From the IMG/VR virus record IMGVR_UViG_2049941000_000426: a stretch of 20,726 bases of DNA. One strand, 5' to 3'. The position numbers and the translations under genes were made by a program. The notes beneath the pieces are model-generated. The model was not told the DNA's origin. It searched no databases and saw nothing but the letters and a program-made list of their open reading frames with translations. Every line of letters starts with the position of its first letter. Position 1 is the first letter of the stretch. Shown here one piece after another: positions 2,277 through 20,726 of the stretch. The stretch is from an uncultured virus (IMG/VR IMGVR_UViG_2049941000_000426) (lineage: Duplodnaviria; Heunggongvirae; Uroviricota; Caudoviricetes).

Positions 2277-2983
2277 CGACAAGCAAAAGAACATCGACCC
2301 CGGCAACGCAGCCTGGGAGGCCTGGCATGCCTCGGACACGCCCGAGACGCGGAAGGCCCTTCTTGAAGCGGTGTCCCCGCAGATAGGGACGGCCCTGCAC
2401 ACGTTCGCCCCGGGCATGGAGAAGGGTCTCCTACTGAAGGCCAACACGATGACCCTGAAGGCCGCGTCGACCTACGACCCGAACAGGGGCCTGAAGTTCA
2501 AGTCCTACGTCTACCAGCAACTGCAACCCCTCCAGCGCGTGGCCGGTAAGCGATCCAGCATGGTTCAGATACCCGAACGGCATCTGATCGAGGGCCGTCG
2601 TCTTTCAGAGGAGACACAGCGTTTCCTGGATGAAAGAGGATATGAACCCTCGACCGCCGACCCCTGNNNNNNNNNNGAGCGTCAAGCGGATCGAGGCTAT
2701 CCGCTCCCATAGGGCGAACGTCTCCGAGTCCATGGCGACCAGTCCGGAAGGCGACCCGATGGCCTCCCAACAGGAGGACCTGCAGAAGGCGTGGTGCGAC
2801 TATGTCTACAATTCCCTTCCATCCTTCGACCAGAAGATCTATGAGTGGCGGACAGGATATGCAGGAGCCCCGATGCTGGGCGTCGTCGAGATTGCGAAAC
2901 GTCTCAATACTTCCCCGGCCACTGTGAGCCAGCGGATGAAGAAAATCACTTCCATGATACAGGAGGGCCTTAACCTTGAGTGA
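2260..2983 (+). CDS. Phage-encoded sigma-70-family RNA polymerase sigma factor (split by 10-N gap 2667-2676)
   Basis: Region 2.3-like YDPNRGLKFKSY, MVQIPE (cf. IRIP) and region 3 GYEPST come before the gap. Region 4 HTH EIAKRLNTSPATVSQRMKKI follows the gap in the 2630..2983 frame. Confidence 0.85.
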
Positions 2984-3329
2984 CGACTTTCTGTACAGGG
3001 TGAAATCCTATGTCACGTCCGTCTGGGACACGGTGATGGGGCATTTGTCCCATCCTGATCCGGTGAAGAAAGAGGACGCCTTGCAGGCCTGTGAAGAGGC
3101 GGCCGGTGAAATGCAGAGTAAATTCTGCACGGACGACCCGCCTTCCATGGATCACGCCGCAATAGCCGCCCGGCAGGCCGGCATACGGTCTATCGCGACA
3201 GGGGAGCTTCATAAGGCCTACCAGCTGTCCCGTTCCGCGAAGATAAAGGCCGCCGTCAACACGGTCGCCTTCATCGTGCGGGACAAGGGTGGGCTGGACA
3301 TCATGAAAGGGAGAATTTATGAAGAGTGA
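2976..3329 (+). CDS. Hypothetical protein
   Basis: 117 aa. TTG start preceded by AGGAGG (2961-2966). Overlaps both neighbours. Confidence 0.7.
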   Translation: MSDDFLYRVKSYVTSVWDTVMGHLSHPDPVKKEDALQACEEAAGEMQSKFCTDDPPSMDHAAIAARQAGIRSIATGELHKAYQLSRSAKIKAAVNTVAFIVRDKGGLDIMKGRIYEE

Positions 3330-7906: not shown

Positions 7907-8733
7907 TGTTCAGACCGATCGACACATTGGCATACGACATAGACTGGCCGATAGAGGGCGGACGGATCATAGGACTACGGGACGCCCGTGTCATCGTGAC
8001 GAAGCGTCCTACTGGAATGGCGTTTCCCTGCGACATAGTCATCACCCGTGTCAGAAGCTCCAATCTTATCTTCGCCCTGCGGGCAAGAGGGGGTTCTGTC
8101 TATGACTCCTCGAAGCTGACGATCTACAAGGGGAATACGGCGACCACTACTCGTGCGTCCAACGATTATCTGACGNNNNNNNNNNNNNNNNNNNNNNNNN
8201 NNNNNNNNNNNNNNNNNNNNNNNNNNNNNNNNNNNNNNNNNNNNNNNNNNNNNNNNNNNNNNNNNNNNNNNNNNNNNNNNNNNNNNNNNNNNNNNNNNNN
8301 NNNNNNNNNNNNNNNNNNNNNNNNNNNNNNNNNNNNNNNNNNNNNNNNNNNNNNNNNNNNNNNNNNNNNNNNNNNNAGGAGCTTCTCGACGTCGAACTCC
8401 ACTCCTTTGCGAGTCGTCCCCTGTTGCGTGATATGGCTGGCCCCGACTGAGGATGTCTTCGACGGATCCGTTCTTCCGGAACCGAACAACGGCTGGAGCA
8501 AGGAAGTCGACACGGGGGCCAACACAATCACCTACAGGGCAGATGAAGTCGATCCCGGTTCACCTACGGAAGACAGGTTCAAGATGGTCAACGGCCTGGC
8601 AAGACCTAATCTGGTCATAACGGCCGACGGTGACGGTTCAATCAACAACGTCATAGGCCAGCCTGGAGGAACTAGCACAATAACGATAAATCCCGGTCTC
8701 AGGGATCTGTCCAACAACGGGAGGGTCCTATGA
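7906..8733 (+). CDS. Hypothetical tail-associated protein (internal gap)
   Basis: True start is likely ATG 7906 (TGATG overlap, GAGGGG RBS), not 7819. ATGA overlap with the next gene. Confidence 0.65.
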   Translation: MFRPIDTLAYDIDWPIEGGRIIGLRDARVIVTKRPTGMAFPCDIVITRVRSSNLIFALRARGGSVYDSSKLTIYKGNTATTTRASNDYLTXXXXXXXXXXXXXXXXXXXXXXXXXXXXXXXXXXXXXXXXXXXXXXXXXXXXXXXXXXXXXXXXXXXRSFSTSNSTPLRVVPCCVIWLAPTEDVFDGSVLPEPNNGWSKEVDTGANTITYRADEVDPGSPTEDRFKMVNGLARPNLVITADGDGSINNVIGQPGGTSTITINPGLRDLSNNGRVL

Positions 8734-10170: not shown

Positions 10171-10439
10171 ATCAGATAGGACTCCGCGCCCATTGTCATT
10201 CTAATGTTTGGAACGGCTTTTATACGGAAAGCGTTTCTTGCGCACTCTAACACGTTTTTTCTTTCGGTGGTACCGAGGTGCGATAACATGCGAAATAACC
10301 TGGGGTACTCCGCCTGCAGGAAGGCACTTCGCCTGCACCTCGAGCAGTTTCTTCTCGATGGATTCATGGGGGAGGCCGAGCTTGTCCAGCCGGCAGCGGC
10401 TGCCGCCCCGCTTGAGATCAGCCATTGATAGGTCGACGG
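10167..10439 (-). CDS. Small CxxC-containing hypothetical protein, 5' end in gap
   Basis: The frame stays open back to the gap (PSTYQWLISSGAAAAAGW...RRNCSRCRR...AESYLI*). ATGA overlap with the 10170 start. Confidence 0.5.
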   Translation of the reverse strand, partial: PSTYQWLISSGAAAAAGWTSSASPMNPSRRNCSRCRRSAFLQAEYPRLFRMLSHLGTTERKNVLECARNAFRIKAVPNIRMTMGAESYLI

Positions 10440-10521
10440 NNNNNNNNNNNNNNNNNNNNNNNNNNNNNNNNNNNNNNNNNNNNNNNNNNNNNNNNNNNNN
10501 NNNNNNNNNNNNNNNNNNNNN

Positions 10522-10987
10522 ATGCCTCCATGACAAGAACCGCTTTCCGGAAGCTGTCACAGATATACAAGGTGTCACGCCCTTCGTCATGAAGCCATGC
10601 CCTGAAGCGTTGCATCATGGAACGGGGCCTTCCAGCCGAGTCCAGTTCGAGCCATTCCGGCAATGTCTCGCCTCTTCCCGTCATCGGGTATTCGACGACC
10701 ACAGGCTCCTTTTCCGTCCTTCCCTTGACGAGAACGACCCGGTCCTTGCAGGAGACCCTTCCCTTCAGATGCTCCACCGGAAAGCCCGAGCTTGTGAACA
10801 TTCTCGACAGGATATTCGCGATGTCCTGCCGAACATCGAGCCATTTGTCATCGTCGAACAGCGTTCCCCATTGATAAACCCCCTTCCCTTGCCAGCCGCA
10901 GGCTTGACAAACAAAGGAACCTGTTTTATTTCTGACAGGAGTGACAGTATATTCATCGTTGCATACTGGACACTTCATGAACAGCAT
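10522..10987 (-). CDS. N-terminal Zn-ribbon protein, end in gap
   Basis: MKCPVCNDEY...SFVCQACGWQG, two CxxC pairs. Start at 10987 or 10978. Confidence 0.65.
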
Positions 10988-11005: not shown

Positions 11006-12853
11006 ATGAACAACCCTTATAACGACAGCAATGCCTTACGGCATGAGGAGATATGTCTCCTGTACGGGCTCGACCCGCACGTCCATAATATAAAGGAAGC
11101 GGAGGAGGCTCCAAGGGCCCGTCTTTACGGCTGGCCTGAAGCGGAGCGCTATCCGCTCGACACGCCCGGGCGCACCATGCTGTCATGGGCGTACGCGAAC
11201 GAGGACATGGAGGATTCCGAAAGGGACCGTGTTCTCGGGAACATCAAGAAGGCTGCCGACTTCTGGAAGATCAGCCTTCCGGAACGCCATGAGGAGAAGG
11301 AGGAGGACGCGAAATACGTCCTCAAGATCTCGGGCGAAGGCTGGGAAGACTCCTACAAGCTGAACACGGCGGCTGAAGTGAAAAGCATTGTCGACCACGT
11401 CCGCAAGAACGCGGCCGACTTCTCCTATACGACCCGTCTTCAGTATGCCAACGGCATTGTCGGCGCACCGAGGGATCTGAAGAAGACTCTCTCGGAAGAG
11501 GACGTCGACTGGATCCGCCACGTGAAANNNNNNNNNNCAACGGCATCGTCGGAGCCCCGAGAGAGTTGAAGAAGACCCTCTCGGAAGAGGACGTCGACTG
11601 GATCCGCCACGTGAAAGGCGAGATCCTGACCGACGGCGCCAGTGTGAAGCGGGCCTGTGACGAACGCGCCGCCTGCATGGAGCAGATGGGCNNNNNNNNN
11701 NNNNNNNNNNNNNNNNNNNNNNNNNNNNNNNNNNNNNNNNNNNNNNNNNNGCGAGGTCTTCCGCAAGGTCTCCGAGGGCGTGAAGGACACGGACGTCGTG
11801 GACGTCCCGTTCATCCGAAAGGTGGCCTCCGCGATGGACCTGGCGGATAGAACGGTAGGCGCGAACGTCCTGTACGGAAGCGTCATCAAGATGCCCGAGT
11901 TCTCCATTGACGGCTATACCCCTGAACAGATCAAGAAGGCGANNNNNNNNNNTTTTAGGCGCTATTCGTTTTCCCAAGTCATTATTACGCAATAAAACCA
12001 TCTTTTTATGCCCCTTGAGATAGCCTCCAACATCCCCGACATCATCAAGTCACTGGTGAAGGTCTGCAACGCTTCGCCGGAGCCTTCGCTCGCCACGTTT
12101 CTTCCATTACTACGATTCGAAGGACATCCGTACTCCCTGAAGTTCCATTTCCAGCTGGAGCCACTGTATAGACTGAGACAGCCTAGGCGTGTTGTCTTCA
12201 TGACAGGTCGACAGGTCGGGAAATCACAGGGGCTGGTTAGCAGTCTNNNNNNNNNNNNNNNNNNNNNNNNNNNNNNNNNNNNNNNNNNNNNNNNNNNNNN
12301 NNNNNNNNNNNNNNNNNNNNNNNNNNNNNNNNNNNNNNNNNNNNNNNNNNNNNNNNNNNNNNNNNNNNNNNNNNNNNNNNNNNNNNNNNNNNNNNNNNNN
12401 NNNNNNNNNNNNNNNNNNNNNNNNNNNATGGAGCAGATGGGCCACCCCGAACTGGGCGAGGTCTTCCGCAAAGTATCCGAAGGCGTGAAGGACACGGATG
12501 TCGTTGACGTCCCGTTCCTCCGCAAGGTGGCTTCCGCGATGGACCTGGCGGATAGAACGGTAGGCGCGAACGTCCTGTATGGAAGCGTCATCAAGATGCC
12601 CGAGTTTTCAATCGACGGCTACACTCCTGAGCAGATCAAGAAGGCGAACGAGGACATGGCGGTCATCGACGAATCGACGGTGACCAGTCGCAACCGTGTC
12701 GCCATGCACCGGGACAAGGTGGACGACTTCTTCATGAAGATCGCCGGAGAGGACACCCGCGCCCTGTCCCTCAATGATCTTGTGAAACGTATCCAGACCA
12801 TGGACGCCATCGAGAAGGACGCCTTCAAGGACATCCTCGGGAAGATCATGTGA
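11006..12853 (+). CDS. Hypothetical phage protein (about 335 aa when reassembled from 11006-11527, 11538-11691 and 12428-12853); possibly head-associated
   Basis: Overlapping pieces join unambiguously (WIRHVK/GEIL..., CMEQMG/HPELGEVF). The N-terminal YGWPEAERYPLDT...IKKAADFWKI motif is seen. The span includes allelic duplicates and a misplaced terminase fragment. Confidence 0.7.
12008..12246 (+). CDS. Terminase large subunit N-terminus (misplaced contig)
   Basis: MPLEIAS...RRVVFMTGRQVGKSQGLVSS. The 3' end matches the reverse complement of about 17066-17114 apart from a synonymous change in the Thr codon (ACA in both) region being identical over the overlap. Confidence 0.85.
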
Positions 12854-15048: not shown

Positions 15049-15094
15049 AAAAAGCCCAAAATGACCGTTTTTGAGTCATTTTGGGCTTCTTTTT
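15049..15094. terminator. Bidirectional intrinsic terminator
   Basis: Perfect 14-bp stem AAGCCCAAAATGAC / GTCATTTTGGGCTT (15052-15088) with an A-run before and a T-run after, between convergent genes. Confidence 0.8.
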
Positions 15095-15569: not shown

Positions 15570-17114
15570 TTATAGTTCCTTTGTCATGCCCTCCGAAGCC
15601 CAGTCCGGAAGGTTGTCGTACTTTTCGACCATCGCCCCGAGCTCCGGCCGACACTTATTCGTGTACCAGATGGCGTTCGCCCCAAGGTTGATGGCATGGG
15701 CCGTGTCGTCCGGATGGGTCCCCATGCGGGTGATAATCCTTATGTCGCCACTGTTCTGGGTGCTCCGGATGTCTTCTCCTAACGCAAGGAAGTCGTCCAG
15801 AAGATCCGAACAGCTGGAATACACCGGAAGAAGCAGTTTCTTGGCCTTTATGGCCGCCATGGTGAGCGCCAGAGACCTTGTCTTGTCCAGAGAGTAGTAC
15901 CCGCCATGCCCATTGTTCGGTTCATTGTACCGTAGCGTATCCTGACGTGGGGCCCACATGTATACAAGGGGCACCGTCATGATGCCGTCGCCCTGCATTT
16001 CCTGGTTCAGCATCTCCTCCTTGATGGCCCCCGCGCCTGTCCCGTCATGCGCTATGTACACGCAGTCGAACTCCCGGGCCAGCATGACGGCCCTTCCGAC
16101 CTGCTCGGCATGTGACTTGCCCGTAGGGACTTTTTCAATGTAGAGGACCTCTATGACGTTTTGCATAGGACGTAGTCCCAGAATTGCCATGACGGTGAAC
16201 GACTCGCCCTCCAAGCCGTACCCGCCCCAGTCTATCCCCAGAACACGCTGTCCGTAGTTGCCCTTGTTTTTGAAGGCTTCCCCGATGTCGTTAATGTGCC
16301 CGGTAGAGGCCTGTTCAAGATCTTTACGAGTAATCAGCCTAACCGCGGCGTCTGATGGCTCTCCCAATATTTCATTGGCGAACTGAGAGGGTGGGTAGCT
16401 AGCCTTTTTAATAAGTAGCTCATGCCATTTTGCTTCTGATGTACAGTGTAACGGGTGGGTTATCTGTGAAAGATGGAATCCGTCGAACTGACCCCTTAGC
16501 TCCGGTCTTCGGAAGGAATAAAAACTTTTTCTTACATCCAGCGGTCTTCCACACTTGGCGCAGATGCAGGTTGTTTTCCCTATCATCTTTTCCAAGTCTT
16601 GATCCAGACACGCGATGTTTGTCTTATTGCAGTGATCGCATTTTATAGTCACTTCCCCTCCTGATGACTTATTGAAATAGTAGGGAAGAGTTCCGTCTGT
16701 GAGCTTTGGGGTTCCTGTGAAAAGATAGGTACCGCCCTGTTTAACAGCTGACATGGTCTCAGCTGCGATGTTTATTATATCTACCTCCATATCATCGACC
16801 TCGTCGGCTATAAGGCAGGCTATTGAACTAACACCGCGAATACGGGAGGCATCCCCGCCTATATAAGCGAAATGAGCCCGACTTCCCGAAGTGAATTCAC
16901 GGATGAGCATGGAGTTATTGCACCGGCTGTTCGTCAGGTAGTTTGCGATATAGGCCTGCGCCACCATGTTTCGGAAGGTCACGTTCGATATATGCCTGAC
17001 CTGCATGAACTGCGGTTCGCATATCATGACATGATAATTCGGTATAAGCCCACACCGGAGCACCAGACTGCTAACCAGCCCCTGTGATTTCCCGACCTGT
17101 CGACCTGTCATGAA
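15570..17114 (-). CDS. terL: Terminase large subunit, GpA-like, intein-free allele (about 577 aa with N-terminus from 12008)
   Basis: Walker A TGRQVGKS, Walker B CLIADEVDD, coupling motif FTGTPK, Zn finger CDHC...CAKC, nuclease motifs LGIDWG, AHDGTG and PDDTAHA. Confidence 0.92.
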   Translation of the reverse strand, partial: FMTGRQVGKSQGLVSSLVLRCGLIPNYHVMICEPQFMQVRHISNVTFRNMVAQAYIANYLTNSRCNNSMLIREFTSGSRAHFAYIGGDASRIRGVSSIACLIADEVDDMEVDIINIAAETMSAVKQGGTYLFTGTPKLTDGTLPYYFNKSSGGEVTIKCDHCNKTNIACLDQDLEKMIGKTTCICAKCGRPLDVRKSFYSFRRPELRGQFDGFHLSQITHPLHCTSEAKWHELLIKKASYPPSQFANEILGEPSDAAVRLITRKDLEQASTGHINDIGEAFKNKGNYGQRVLGIDWGGYGLEGESFTVMAILGLRPMQNVIEVLYIEKVPTGKSHAEQVGRAVMLAREFDCVYIAHDGTGAGAIKEEMLNQEMQGDGIMTVPLVYMWAPRQDTLRYNEPNNGHGGYYSLDKTRSLALTMAAIKAKKLLLPVYSSCSDLLDDFLALGEDIRSTQNSGDIRIITRMGTHPDDTAHAINLGANAIWYTNKCRPELGAMVEKYDNLPDWASEGMTKEL

Positions 17115-17124
17115 NNNNNNNNNN

Positions 17125-17444
17125 TGAAGGCTTCCCCGAGGTCGTTTATTCTTCCTGTAGACGCTTGCTCAAGTTCTTTTCTGGTTATCAGACGGATGCT
17201 TTGATCGTCCGGGGTTCCCAAGATTTCATTGTAGTACTGATTGCGCGGATAGGTTGAGGCCTTGTTTAGAAGTTCCAACCACTTCTCCTTGGACGTACAG
17301 TGCAGCGGATGAACTATCTGGGATAGATGGAAACCATCGAATACACCTCTGAGTTCAGGTCTTCTAAAAGAGTAGTAGCTTTTCCGGACATCAAGAGGTC
17401 TTCCACATTTCGCACAGATGCAGGTGGTCTTCCCTATCATCTTT
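17125..17444 (-). CDS. terL: Terminase large subunit internal fragment, divergent second allele
   Basis: MIGKTTCICAKCGRPLDVRK...DLGEAF is collinear with the 15570..17114 protein, with many substitutions. Confidence 0.85.
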
Positions 17445-17955
17445 NNNNNNNNNNCCGGTTGGCCTCCGTCCGTGTCTTATTGTTGCACATGCCCATCCAG
17501 TCCGTCGCAGCNNNNNNNNNNGCAGGCCGCCGGGGCCGGTGTCTCTCCCGTCCAGTCATGCCACTGCTGTGGATTGATCGTTGCACGNNNNNNNNNNCAG
17601 TAGAGCCGCGGTCCCCGTCGAGTGGTCGTAGGCGTTGAAGCCGATGGTCTGGACCCCAGTGCCCTTGTAGTTCAAAANNNNNNNNNNAGCTTTTCCGATC
17701 AGCATGTCGGTCAGGATTCTGATGGAAGACGGACAGGCNNNNNNNNNNAGCCCCTTTCAGAGCGTTCGTGTAGGTGTCGAAGTGGTACCACAGCCAGTCC
17801 GCCCAGTCCAGCATCTCGCCGACTGTNNNNNNNNNNACCTATAAAAGACGTAAAAGCAAAAAATTTTATAATATCATTTGATTTCTCTGATAGGCAGTGT
17901 ATGTTAATATCTGTAGTCAAGAGAAACGCATCATATCACGGAAGGNNNNNNNNNN

Positions 17956-18554
17956 AAACAACGATCCTTGAATAAGAAGATCTACAGGGGTGCACCGCTC
18001 CTGTAGATCTTCTAGCTTCCATCGACGCGGGATACCCTTGCGGTACCCCGCGTGGATGGTTGAACGGGAACTGCATTGCTCCCGTCCACGGGGAATCCCC
18101 GCGGTCTTCGATCTTGCGCTTTCCGTCTTTTATAAACCGGGCGACCAACACCTCTATGAGCGCCAGCTCATCGAGAAGTTGGTCGCCCGGTGGTCCGAAG
18201 TCCGGATGTCCATTGTCCGGGCGGAAGGGAATCCCCTCCGAGTCCACAGGAAAGAAGCAGCGTCCTGGATCTAAGACAGTACCGTGCTTCTATCCAAGTA
18301 CCGACTTGAGGTGGAAGCACGGTAGTGTCGTCCGGATCGAACGGCATATCCCGTTCGCCGACAGGGAAGCCCCGTCGTTTTCCTCCGAGTCCATCCAAGA
18401 CTTGACAAGGCCTGCATTGGCCTTATTTTNNNNNNNNNNGAATTTTTAAATAGACATCCGGTTCCGTCTTAAACAAGCCAGGTATCCTGATCCACGCTGG
18501 TAAACACGGAACGTGGAAAACCGCGTGGATCAGGATACCTGTGCCCGGTCAGGC
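17956..18554. ncRNA. Candidate structured non-coding hairpin array
   Basis: Perfect stems of 14 bp (17975-18013), 14 bp (18136-18191), 11 bp within 18275-18329 and 19 bp (18479-18541), plus smaller hairpins. GGGAA(T/G)CCCC occurs at 18091, 18227 and 18364. No convincing ORF. Confidence 0.55.
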
Positions 18555-18652
18555 NNNNNNNNNNNNNNNNNNNNNNNNNNNNNNNNNNNNNNNNNNNNNN
18601 NNNNNNNNNNNNNNNNNNNNNNNNNNNNNNNNNNNNNNNNNNNNNNNNNNNN

Positions 18653-18727
18653 GAAGACGATGTTTATGACATTGAGGTAGAAGGAACTCATAGTTACATT
18701 CTCGCAAATGGTTTATTATCAGGGAAT
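18653..18727 (+). mobile_element. Intein C-terminal splicing region (blocks F/G)
   Basis: EDDVYDIEVEGTHSYILANGLLSGN is followed by C+1. Not in the ORF track. Confidence 0.9.
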
Positions 18728-18886
18728 TGTGACGACATGGAGGAAGATGTCATAAACATCGCCGCAGAGACGATGTCCGCTGTCAGAAGCGGTGGTTCCT
18801 ATCTGTATACAGGAACTCCAAAGCTTACAGACGGGACATTGTCTCGGTTCTTCGACAGGTCATCTGGTGGTGAGGTAACGATTCAT
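18728..18886 (+). CDS. terL: Terminase large subunit extein fragment, second allele
   Basis: CDDMEEDVINIAAETMSAVRSGGSYLYTGTPKLTDGTLSRFFDRSSGGEVTIH aligns to VDDMEVDIINIAAETMSAVKQGGTYLFTGTPKLTDGTLPYYFNKSSGGEVTIK. Confidence 0.9.
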
Positions 18887-19162
18887 TGATTTTCCCTTGA
18901 CTCTGGNNNNNNNNNNNNNNNNNNNNNNNNNNNNNNNNNNNNNNNNNNNNNNNNNNNNNNNNNNNNNNNNNNNNNNNNNNNNNNNNNNNNNNNNNNNNNN
19001 NNNNNNNNNNNNNNNNNNNNNNNNNNNNNNNNNNNNNNNNNNNNNNNNNNNNNNNNNNNNNNNNNNNNNNNNNNNNNNNNNNNNNNNNNNNNNNNNNNNN
19101 NNNNNNNNNNNNNNNNNNNNNNNNNNNNNNNNNNNNNNNNNNNNNNNNNNNNNNNNNNNNNC

Positions 19163-19481
19163 TTCATAAAGCTGTCGGAGCTGATATCTCCCTATACACC
19201 AGCATCGATGATGTACAAGGTCAATCTATTTATGCAGAAATGTCGGCAATGCGAGAAGGACATGCCTTTAAGCAAAGCAGATTTCTGCTCGGAAGAGTGT
19301 CGGAAGAAGTATTACGAACTTCACAAAACAGAAATGTGGCTGAAGCAAAAAGAGAAGGAAGCAAACTACAGCGAAGAACGGAAAGCGGAGATACGCAAAC
19401 GCAGGCGAGATCAGAAACGAGAGAAGTTTGCGAACATGACGGAAGAGGAGAAAGAAGTAGTAAGAGACTACAAGAGGAAGC
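19163..19481 (+). CDS. C-terminal end of LAGLIDADG_2 endonuclease domain followed by Zn finger and charged helix (fragment)
   Basis: The frame is open from the gap. FIKLSELISPYTPASMMYKV matches the I-SceI/LAGLIDADG_2-type terminal motif (LI-x-PY-x-x-x-SM-x-YK). It is followed by CRQC...FCSEEC and a K/R/E-rich helix. Confidence 0.7.
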
Positions 19482-19493
19482 NNNNNNNNNNGG

Positions 19494-19645
19494 TCTCCGG
19501 ACGGAAACAGTGGAAGTCTAGCCCTTTGCTCATATCCATTAGAGGATGTAACACTGTTTCAGAAATGGCTGATAGACAAATGGGGAATGGAGACAGTGCT
19601 TCAAGAAGCAACCCACTCAGTTTCGAAACACAAATTCTACCTGTT
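19494..19645 (+). CDS. LAGLIDADG_2 endonuclease, second-domain fragment
   Basis: Frame from 19494 reads SPDGNSGSLALCSYPLEDVTLFQKWLIDKWGMETVLQEATHSVSKHKFYL. Not the frame shown in the ORF track. Confidence 0.7.
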
Positions 19646-19702
19646 NNNNNNNNNNGCTATTCGTTTTCCCAAGTCATTATTACGCAATAAAACCACATTT
19701 TT

Positions 19703-19806
19703 ATGCCCCTCGAGATAGCCTCCAACATCCCCGACATCATCAAGTCGCTGGTGAAAGTCTGCAACGCTTCGCCGGAGCCTTCGCTCGCCACGTTTCTTCC
19801 ATTACT
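19703..19806 (+). CDS. terL: Terminase large subunit N-terminus, second allelic copy
   Basis: Same protein as from 12008, with a few synonymous SNPs and a near-identical upstream region. Confidence 0.85.
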
Positions 19807-19925
19807 NNNNNNNNNNNNNNNNNNNNNNNNNNNNNNNNNNNNNNNNNNNNNNNNNNNNNNNNNNNNNNNNNNNNNNNNNNNNNNNNNNNNNNNNNNNNNN
19901 NNNNNNNNNNNNNNNNNNNNNNNNG

Positions 19926-20252
19926 GGAAGATGCGTCTATCAGAGGTTATCGAACATGAGTTTACTCGAAGAAGCAAAGAAGGAAGGATTATCGGAGTTA
20001 CAGCTAAATGCGCTGATGGGGACAATCCTCGGGGATGGCTGTATCAGATCCCAGAGCCAGAACACGGCGTTTGTCCTGTGGGACCACTCTGCGAAACAGA
20101 AAGACTACGTGAATGCCAAGTACCAACTATTGTCCGGGTTCGTGACGAGGCCTCCATACGAGAAGCCGAATCCCGGTTACGGGGACTTCTTGTGCATATT
20201 GCGAACGACAAGTCTTACGACACTTCGCTCGTTGTATCAGATGGTGTATCCG
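19926..20252 (+). CDS. LAGLIDADG_2 endonuclease, first-domain fragment
   Basis: LSELQLNALMGTILGDG...HSAKQKDYVNAKYQLL...LRSLYQMVYP. The frame is open upstream of the ATG at 19956 (GRCVYQRLSN), so this is probably an internal domain. Confidence 0.85.
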
Positions 20253-20624
20253 NNNNNNNNNNGCCTAATGCCAGAGTTGGTGCTGCCGACAACCTTATTG
20301 ACAAGAATGCCGAAGGTACACCTGCTGAGTTCACCTANNNNNNNNNNGCCGAAGGACAGCAAGCAGAAGGGCAAGCTCGTCAAGCGGGAGGACAAGGANN
20401 NNNNNNNNTTTCCCGAAAACATTCTCCATTGTCAGACAATCATCGTTCGGCATTTTTCCNNNNNNNNNNACCCGAGATATGCCCGCTTGTCGTGGGGCTC
20501 ATGGAGTAGTGGGAGAGAAGNNNNNNNNNNCGCCGTGCGAATGACCATCACCCTGTTCAGAAGTTCTACCGAGATATGCTCCAGATGATGCTCCGCGTTT
20601 GTCAGTTCGCCCAGNNNNNNNNNN

Positions 20625-20726
20625 GGGCTCGCATATCATGACATGGTAGTTCGGAATAAGACCACACCTTAGAATAAGACTGCTAACCAGCCCCTGTGAT
20701 TTCCCGACCTGTCGACCTGTCATGAA
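20625..20726 (-). CDS. terL: Terminase Walker A fragment, divergent second allele
   Basis: FMTGRQVGKSQGLVSSLILRCGLIPNYHVMICEP. DNA is identical to allele A through VSS, then heavily recoded. Confidence 0.85.

Follow-up and report, generated by a model that had tools for sequence, protein, structure and literature searches.

A modular array of structured hairpins in a chimeric tailed-phage scaffold from the cattle gut

The stretch described here, positions 17956-18554, lies in an IMG/VR record of an uncultured tailed phage (IMGVR_UViG_2049941000_000426; Caudoviricetes), a scaffold of 20,726 nt that is referred to in its entirety as the window. The stretch is a genuine non-coding modular hairpin array of a cattle-gut tailed phage population, and its structure is unusual and of a type that has not been described. 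It consists of two pieces free of undetermined bases (N), 17956-18429 (474 nt) and 18440-18554 (115 nt). On the plus strand, a single-stranded linker of about 30 nt leads to one or two long hairpins (C), after which come a short hairpin (B) and a constant hairpin (A), and three modules of 136-137 nt carry the helices in this same order. The period is set by the core of hairpin A, which reads GGGAATCCCC at 18091 and 18227 and GGGAAGCCCC at 18364, giving spacings of 136 and 137 nt, with no other exact copies in the window. A preliminary description of this DNA had proposed a periodic GGGAA(T/G)CCCC core at these positions, flanked by long and short hairpins, and the analysis recovers the cores and each of the hairpins at the places claimed for them.

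The 474-nt piece begins with the long hairpin hp0 (17975-18013), a 14-bp perfect stem whose loop contains the palindrome GTGCAC; on the plus strand only, this stem can be extended by four pairs via two G.U pairs. Unit 1 is built from C1 (18019-18059), with 18-nt arms that contain one A.C and one G/G besides 16 Watson-Crick pairs, from B1 (18062-18087), which displays CTGCATTG in its loop, and from A1 (18086-18104), an 8-bp G+C-rich stem with an AAT triloop. The single A.C of A1 on the plus strand corresponds to a G.U on the minus strand. A linker of about 31 nt (18105-18135), containing TTCCGTCTT at 18121-18129 and an A/T-rich run, separates A1 from C2 (18136-18191), in which a 14-bp perfect lower stem is joined through small internal loops to a 6-bp tip. 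The next short hairpin, B2 (about 18200-18222), is the most strain-variable part of the array, with four single-nucleotide polymorphisms (SNPs) in other contigs, and it is followed by A2 (18222-18240). A separate feature of this stretch, at 18192-18222, is the recurrence of GTCC every 7-8 nt (GTCCGAA GTCCGGAT GTCCATT GTCCGGG), and the variability there amounts to 4 SNPs in 23 nt. Unit 3 comprises C3 (18275-18329), B3 (18338-18357; 7-bp stem, 6-nt loop) and A3 (18359-18377), the last with TTTT directly 3' of it on the plus strand. The piece closes with a last hairpin (18406-18429, plus strand) that has the stem AAGGCC/GGCCTT and the loop TGCATT; the hairpin itself spans 18406-18425 and is followed by ATTTT. 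In the separate 115-nt piece, TTCCGTCTT recurs at 18462 ahead of the long hairpin C4 (18479-18541), which has 19 consecutive Watson-Crick pairs between 18479-18497 and 18523-18541, as had been noted for a fourth unit. Between each hairpin A and the long hairpin after it, the linkers are 31, 34 and 30 nt long, and all hairpin loops in the array are 3-11 nt.

The long hairpins, of 18-30 bp and near-perfect, are unrelated in sequence between modules. Tandem Repeats Finder (TRF) detects no tandem repeats in the array, a MAFFT alignment of the units contains many gaps and almost no sequence in common other than short motifs, and the longest direct repeat families reach 10-21 nt in two or three copies. 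The repeated linker motifs noted earlier were confirmed. TTCCGTCTT is found twice, against 0.18 occurrences expected; CCTCCGAGTCCA is found twice as an exact copy, at 18235-18246 and 18382-18393; and CTGCATTG is found twice (18071 and 18412), both times as a hairpin loop, in B1 and in the last hairpin, on different stems. B1 and B3 in turn share stem sequence (GAACGG.../...CCCGTYC). The earlier statement that the long stems share no obvious sequence was slightly overstated, in that C1 and C4 have CCGCGTGGAT and GGATACC in common. Because only shape and a motif of 7-10 nt are kept, standard tools miss the array. A public contig extends the array 50 nt upstream of 17956, and 30 nt of this extension hold a fourth A-type hairpin, with an 8-bp stem of other letters and an AAA loop, and with a linker of about 30 nt and a long hairpin after it. 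The scaffold thus shows only part of the array, which has at least four modules, with spacings of 136, 137 and about 158 nt. As a side observation, GATC seems enriched, with 8 occurrences against 2.3 expected; palindromic arms count twice in this tally, which is hence given no weight.

The 474-nt piece folds far more stably than its composition would predict. As plus-strand RNA, its minimum free energy is -242.8 kcal/mol compared to -159.9 +/- 5.8 kcal/mol for shuffled sequences (z -14.3), and none of 100 shuffles was as good. Folding on both strands had been proposed as a check, and the minus strand is likewise strongly structured (-241.5 kcal/mol, z -11.2); with DNA parameters, the piece gives a z of -12.0. 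In a G+C-corrected fold scan of the scaffold in 132 segments of 300 nt, the only strong outliers were two inside the array, at -5.5 and -4.8 standard deviations (SD), and the next-best segment, at -2.4 SD, is an ordinary bidirectional terminator region. Elsewhere in the scaffold, a 17-bp hairpin at 15049-15091, with an A-run and a T-run at its sides and positioned between convergent genes, is a typical bidirectional intrinsic terminator and provides an example of the ordinary terminators of this phage.

The array recurs at 95-99% identity in contigs of four studies, from runs labelled bovine gut metagenome, and an artefact of a single assembly is thereby excluded. Comparison of the copies of hairpin A, and of the variants in these contigs, bears on the proposal that selection acts on structure rather than on sequence. 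Among the three window copies of hairpin A, 3 of 8 pairs are changed on both sides, and on the plus strand 21 of 24 cells are paired, compared to 33-54% when the partner is slid; these values were matched by 25 of 500 shuffles. The three unpaired plus-strand cells are all A.C, which on the minus strand are G.U. In contigs of other runs, 18226 A>G and 18363 A>G put a G-C in place of the A.C in A2 and A3, respectively, and thereby give perfect 8-bp stems. Four changes refold B2 as a CCGG-AAT-CCGG hairpin, like the tip of hairpin A. Other variants fall in the B3 loop (18345 C>T) or in linkers (18382 C>A and insertions after 18191 and 18378), two move the internal loop of C2 (18177 and 18180), and two more, 18186 and 18188 C>T, produce G.U on the plus strand, provided that their partners, which lie outside that contig, are unchanged. 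From what are very few events, the natural variants suggest selection on structure. For the small constant hairpin, the proposal is supported by the compensatory pairs, by the mismatch-repairing variants and by the fourth copy with its different stem.

No conserved protein open reading frame (ORF) was found across the array. When the four ORFs that cross it were compared to Pfam at E values up to 1, none reached the cut-off, the only row being Fur_reg_FbpA (E 0.049, 13.7 bits versus 22). The longest, of 123 amino acids, has no homologue at E values up to 0.01, and the translations of the array ORFs are rich in Ser, Arg and Pro. A search of the whole window against Rfam 15, including group I/II introns, CRISPR direct repeats, msr and ROOL/GOLLD-type RNAs, yielded no match at the gathering score; with E values up to 10, the sole match was mir-5892 (16.6 bits versus a gathering score of 82; E 4.3), and the region 17100-20726 gave none. 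The earlier judgment that the array fits neither CRISPR nor tRNA patterns also stands, as there are no identical direct repeats of 25-37 nt with spacers and ARAGORN reports no tRNA or tmRNA genes in the window. A Pfam scan of 54 window ORFs, out of 122 listed ORFs of at least 60 amino acids, returned no reverse transcriptase, Nop-domain protein or integrase, an outcome that agrees with the remark that no partner protein is visible, although the true flanks of the array may lie outside the scanned ORFs and Pfam may miss TIGR-associated (Tas) proteins. There are small ORFs of a zinc-ribbon or zinc-finger-like type at 10418-10987 (minus strand) and 19208-19481 (plus strand), with a match to a TFIIB-type Zn ribbon (E 3e-05) and weak MYND/FCS-like matches.

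Relatives of the array were sought in several collections. A blastn search in distant mode against 50,697 phage records found no match to it. Exact searches for a 32-mer and a 22-mer in viral contigs, for a 25-mer of the terminase junction in the same contigs and for a 30-mer in metagenome contigs all gave zero hits, as did the pattern of linker motif plus A hairpin in viral contigs. The B+A module pattern hit two viral loci of one identical sequence, which by eye is ordinary and G+C-rich, with no hairpin array around it, and we take these hits as chance. Pairs of GGGAAKCCCC spaced 118-140 nt apart occur at 22 viral loci, and we rejected these as relatives: none of the 22 has both copies in an A-type hairpin (at least 4 of 5 outer pairs), compared to 3 of 3 in the window. 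Rough-shuffle fold z values of -4 or lower were obtained for five of these loci (L010, L012, L019, L022 and L023). On inspection, L010 and L012 are without the module layout, and L019 is a 15-nt tandem repeat and not a relative of the array; L022 and L023 were judged by the A-type hairpin test alone. L019 is a viral contig that carries, at about 2890-3170, a long array of these 15-nt repeats (CCCCTTGCAGGTTGG-like). Searches of the literature on phage stem-loop arrays and tandem intergenic hairpins returned no description of such an array.

The hairpin arms were also considered as sequences that might target a host. Scanning 185,579 species genomes with 22-mers led to a single 23-nt identity, between the 3' arm of C3 with the following GTCCGG and positions 8001-8023 of locus L025 (G001 contig 65), within an ORF of an uncultured Firmicutes metagenome-assembled genome. 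The other arms do not match that genome (best other E 0.095), and we take the identity as chance and reject host targeting. Nor do the arms match the rest of the window, the metagenome contig L034, the viral contig L001 or L002, where the best hits are 12-13 nt long, with E values of 0.22 or more.

The scaffold that carries the array contains 35 runs of N. Its recognizable tailed-phage genes are a gpA-type terminase large subunit (15570-17111, minus strand) and a baseplate-wedge-like protein, and the remaining ORFs are orphans. The closest terminase relative among viral contigs is 38% identical (L001), cultured phages reach 25% or less, and a search of 401 Firmicutes-phylum genomes gave no terminase match. 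In the metagenome contig L034, the terminase is 82% identical, and that contig stops 85 nt upstream of the gene. Terminase fragments appear five times in the window, in both orientations (11953-12246, 19656-19806, 20625-20726, 17126-17443 and 15570-17114), at two levels of identity to L034, 94-97% and 74-82%. The terminase start occurs in three copies, and the fragments belong to two types of terminase. Either the scaffold combines two or more related phage genomes, or its pieces are in the wrong order. The warning that scaffold placement is unreliable was well founded, as public contigs of the probable source sample join the pieces differently. The A/T-rich piece at 17837-17945 runs on in these contigs into sequence other than 17956. 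Beyond 18429, they go on with sequence that the window lacks, as a contig from a different study confirms, and short words from their flanks are likewise absent from the window. The piece 18440-18554 is directly preceded in a public contig by window positions 18885-18906 plus 8 nt, and not by 18429. One public contig switches strand inside hairpin C2.

This public-contig join places C4 next to a variant terminase gene. The variant piece at 18653-18906 (plus strand) encodes an intein C-terminal end followed by terminase residues of about 169-220. The intein C-terminal splicing block lies at 18653-18730 and ends ...THSYILANGLLSGN then C, and positions 18713-18883 are 74% identical to L034 residues 164-220, and the variant terminase thus bears an intein at the Walker-B region. 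A LAGLIDADG_2 endonuclease domain at 19956-20588 (plus strand, E 7.9e-09), in a frame that is open upstream to the N gap, may represent the homing-endonuclease domain of this intein and not a free-standing gene; a query with it found no relatives in viral contigs. Homology of the variant terminase ends after ...ACGAT at 18883, with a stop codon at 18887-18889, and two uninterrupted copies continue past this point. An intervening sequence in the variant terminase gene thus starts with C4 and its TTCCGTCTT motif, and an intron, a split of the gene or a recombination junction could account for the interruption. By eye, the join before C4 reads TTGACT, 17 nt, TTTAAA, which would amount to a promoter-like site pointing into C4.

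How can this structure be explained? We tentatively read the array as a modular structured non-coding RNA of a rumen phage, an interpretation that we consider possible but short of probable. RNA is favored because only complementarity, and not sequence, is conserved. Selection for complementarity would imply a single-stranded nucleic acid, which in a tailed phage with double-stranded DNA (dsDNA) is most often RNA. The plus strand is slightly favored because the last hairpin precedes a T-run, because TTCCGTCTT is followed by a long hairpin in the same orientation in both pieces, and because in the 115-nt piece this orientation agrees with that of the upstream terminase exon. The RNA nature, strand, processing and role of the array are inferred as follows. 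The array would be transcribed as one RNA, in which the small constant hairpins and the shared CUGCAUUG loops could be handles for recognition by a protein or for contacts between loops. The long double-stranded hairpins might act as stabilizing elements or be cut by RNase III or another double-strand-specific RNase, and cutting of this type would free unit-length RNAs.

A number of observations weigh against an RNA, and against the plus strand in particular. True RNA genes usually favor one strand, yet here the fold is equally good on both (-242.8 versus -241.5 kcal/mol), and wobble-type mismatches within helices, in a count that leaves out B2 and flanking positions, are without strand bias (5 G.T on the plus strand and 8 on the minus strand). 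The constant hairpin pairs in 24 of 24 cells on the minus strand versus 21 of 24 on the plus strand; hairpins A and B1 favor the minus strand, and hp0 and C3 favor the plus strand. The last hairpin with its T-run looks like a weak plus-strand terminator, and this weakness counts in the same direction: a scan makes no terminator call at 18406-18429 and instead places a promoter-like site (TTGACA, 16 nt, TATTTT) there. For a conserved RNA, the stems are of unusual length and perfection, and no GNRA- or UNCG-type loops were seen in the array. None of the seven listed runs that hold the stretch is recorded as RNA, which is neutral as to expression, and public contigs by their nature cannot reveal strand or RNA ends. 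Furthermore, the chimeric scaffold hides the true neighbors of the 474-nt piece, and no homologous locus in which covariation across lineages would show was found in the collections searched.

A more specific form of the RNA interpretation, which we put forward as a speculation of low probability, is that this is a new phage-encoded hairpin-RNA array processed unit by unit, in which a constant handle (8 bp with a GG-AAN-CC tip) is combined with interchangeable long double-stranded hairpin 'cargo'. Such units could be decoys against a host nucleic-acid sensor, or guide-like small-RNA precursors for a partner protein hidden by the broken assembly. An array of handle and cargo would resemble CRISPR and TIGR (tandem interspaced guide RNA) arrays in modular logic, except that the cargo would be double-stranded. 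If transcribed and processed, it would represent a phage-borne RNA architecture that is missed by repeat finders, by CRISPR/TIGR finders and by Rfam.

The strongest alternative to a structured RNA is a role at the DNA level, with hairpins that would form where the phage DNA is single-stranded or supercoiled. They could then mark an origin or priming site of replication, a site of packaging or end processing, or promoters of the hairpin type. We regard this serious rival as somewhat doubtful. The equal folding of both strands, the z of -12.0 with DNA parameters and the lack of strand bias in the wobble-type mismatches all suit a DNA element, and near-perfect stems would be expected if template switching keeps palindromes perfect. 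The position is also suggestive: the scaffolder set the piece beside the A/T-rich piece and terminase fragments, and the terminase start was assembled three times independently, each time with a break 47-85 nt upstream of the ATG, which would fit a genome end or a palindromic region that is hard to assemble. However, the A/T-rich piece does not join 17956 in public contigs. Proteins that bind dsDNA conserve sequence, whereas here only complementarity is kept, and unless special factors assist, it is rare for duplex DNA to extrude 8-bp stems with 3-nt loops. There are also no iterons, and no direct repeats beyond the motifs of 9-12 nt.

A less likely explanation, which we consider doubtful on balance, is that the hairpins are part of an intervening sequence in the variant terminase gene, either a self-splicing intron or another mobile insertion, and contribute peripheral structure to that element or to a small gene carried by it. 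The loss of terminase homology after ...ACGAT, with a stop 4 nt on where two uninterrupted copies continue, and the public contig that links this interruption via 8 nt to the piece with C4, point in this direction. On the opposite side of the array, the scaffold has a second variant terminase piece, 17443-17126 (residues 239-344). The same gene has an intein with a LAGLIDADG domain and is thus a hot spot for selfish elements. In addition, the last exon base (18883) is T, and T/U in this position is the rule for group I 5' splice sites. Against these points, the Rfam scan detected no group I catalytic core and no group I/II match even at E values up to 10, and the variant terminase pieces are fragmented and out of order. 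A 1600-nt public contig with C4 extends about 615 nt past 18554 without meeting the 474-nt array, so the array is not immediately adjacent. Both exon pieces face away from each other in the scaffold, and a 3' junction was sought and none was found. To our knowledge, known intron cores are unlike some ten independent hairpins with a 137-nt period.

It is improbable, in our view, that the array has no function of its own and represents quasi-palindromes from template switching, small palindromic insertions or, in part, an artefact of short-read assembly. The assembly is certainly very poor, with its N runs, its chimeric order and the contig that flips strand in C2, and no relatives were found. 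A weak hint comes from the piece that starts at 20531, which has 12 nt (20531-20542; the 8 nt of the join and GAAT) in common with the junction ahead of C4 and diverges after them; one variant may thus have a C4 module that another lacks. An origin by chance or by misassembly is nevertheless difficult to reconcile with the recovery of the same sequence, with few changes, in contigs of four studies, with the regular helix order and the constant motif at 136/137 nt, with the compensatory changes and mismatch-repairing variants in hairpin A, and with a conserved loop on different stems.

Read on the minus strand, each module could conceivably be a retron-like non-coding RNA, with a closing stem, two short hairpins and a long hairpin copied by a reverse transcriptase, but we judge this very improbable. 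The minus-strand order of A, B and long C, with a 9-bp closing stem around unit 3 (18261-18269 with 18393-18401), resembles an msr-msd layout, and hairpin A is fully paired on this strand only. In units 1 and 2, though, the closing stems are weak or ambiguous, neither Rfam nor the Pfam scan of the 54 ORFs supplies a retron RNA or a reverse transcriptase, and the retrons known to us carry one such RNA and not a tandem array. A stem-loop TIGR array providing guide RNAs for a Nop-domain Tas protein is close to refuted, because the TIGR arrays of phages, while similarly made of tandem hairpins with variable stems and a terminator at the end, have loops of roughly 28-43 nt (PMC12045711; bioRxiv 10.64898/2026.09.09.750476) compared to 3-11 nt for every hairpin in our array, and because the 54 scanned ORFs include no Nop-domain match.

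The array lies in or near a terminase region rich in selfish elements, including the intein and the interruption, and could be a small mobile or regulatory module of the packaging genes. So far it has been observed in one lineage and on a bad assembly, and its main value is as a well-defined target for later work.

Several known systems share some of these features. In TIGR systems, the stem-loop units present two spacers with box C/D motifs in a large hairpin loop and work with a Nop-domain protein (Faure et al., 2025, PMC12045711; bioRxiv 10.64898/2026.09.09.750476). TIGR arrays and the array described here are both tandem phage-borne hairpin arrays in which the stems vary and a few positions and the geometry are constant, but our array has small loops, three hairpins per unit of about 137 nt and, within the ORFs scanned, no Nop match.

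Repeats of the ToxI type, from type III toxin-antitoxin loci, are near-identical tandem units of about 34-45 nt beside a toxin gene; we rejected them as a match, as TRF finds no tandem repeat here and the units share short motifs only. Repetitive extragenic palindromes and bacterial interspersed mosaic elements (REP/BIME), together with other palindromic intergenic repeats, are also clusters of hairpin-forming palindromes in non-coding DNA. The REPs of one genome, however, have a common sequence and occur at many sites, whereas the long stems of the array are related neither to one another nor to other parts of the window. In integron attC sites, structure is likewise conserved instead of sequence, and the size is similar (about 57-141 nt). 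In the array, by contrast, R'/R'' core words are not evident by eye, no cassettes lie between the sites, and the 54 scanned ORFs include no integrase.

Two RNA systems offer partial parallels to the long and to the small hairpins. The RNase III processing hairpins of T7-like and SP82-like phages are long and imperfect, of about two helical turns with small internal loops, much like the C hairpins. They lie singly at the junctions between early genes and have neither a constant companion hairpin nor a fixed period, whereas no genes separate the hairpins of the array. Decoy or sponge RNAs of the CsrB/RsmZ type are non-coding and consist of repeated small hairpins with a short constant motif. These RNAs expose GGA in the loops of many short hairpins; in the array, the GG-AAK-CC motif is mostly stem, GGA is by eye not obviously enriched, and each unit adds a long hairpin of 18-30 bp.

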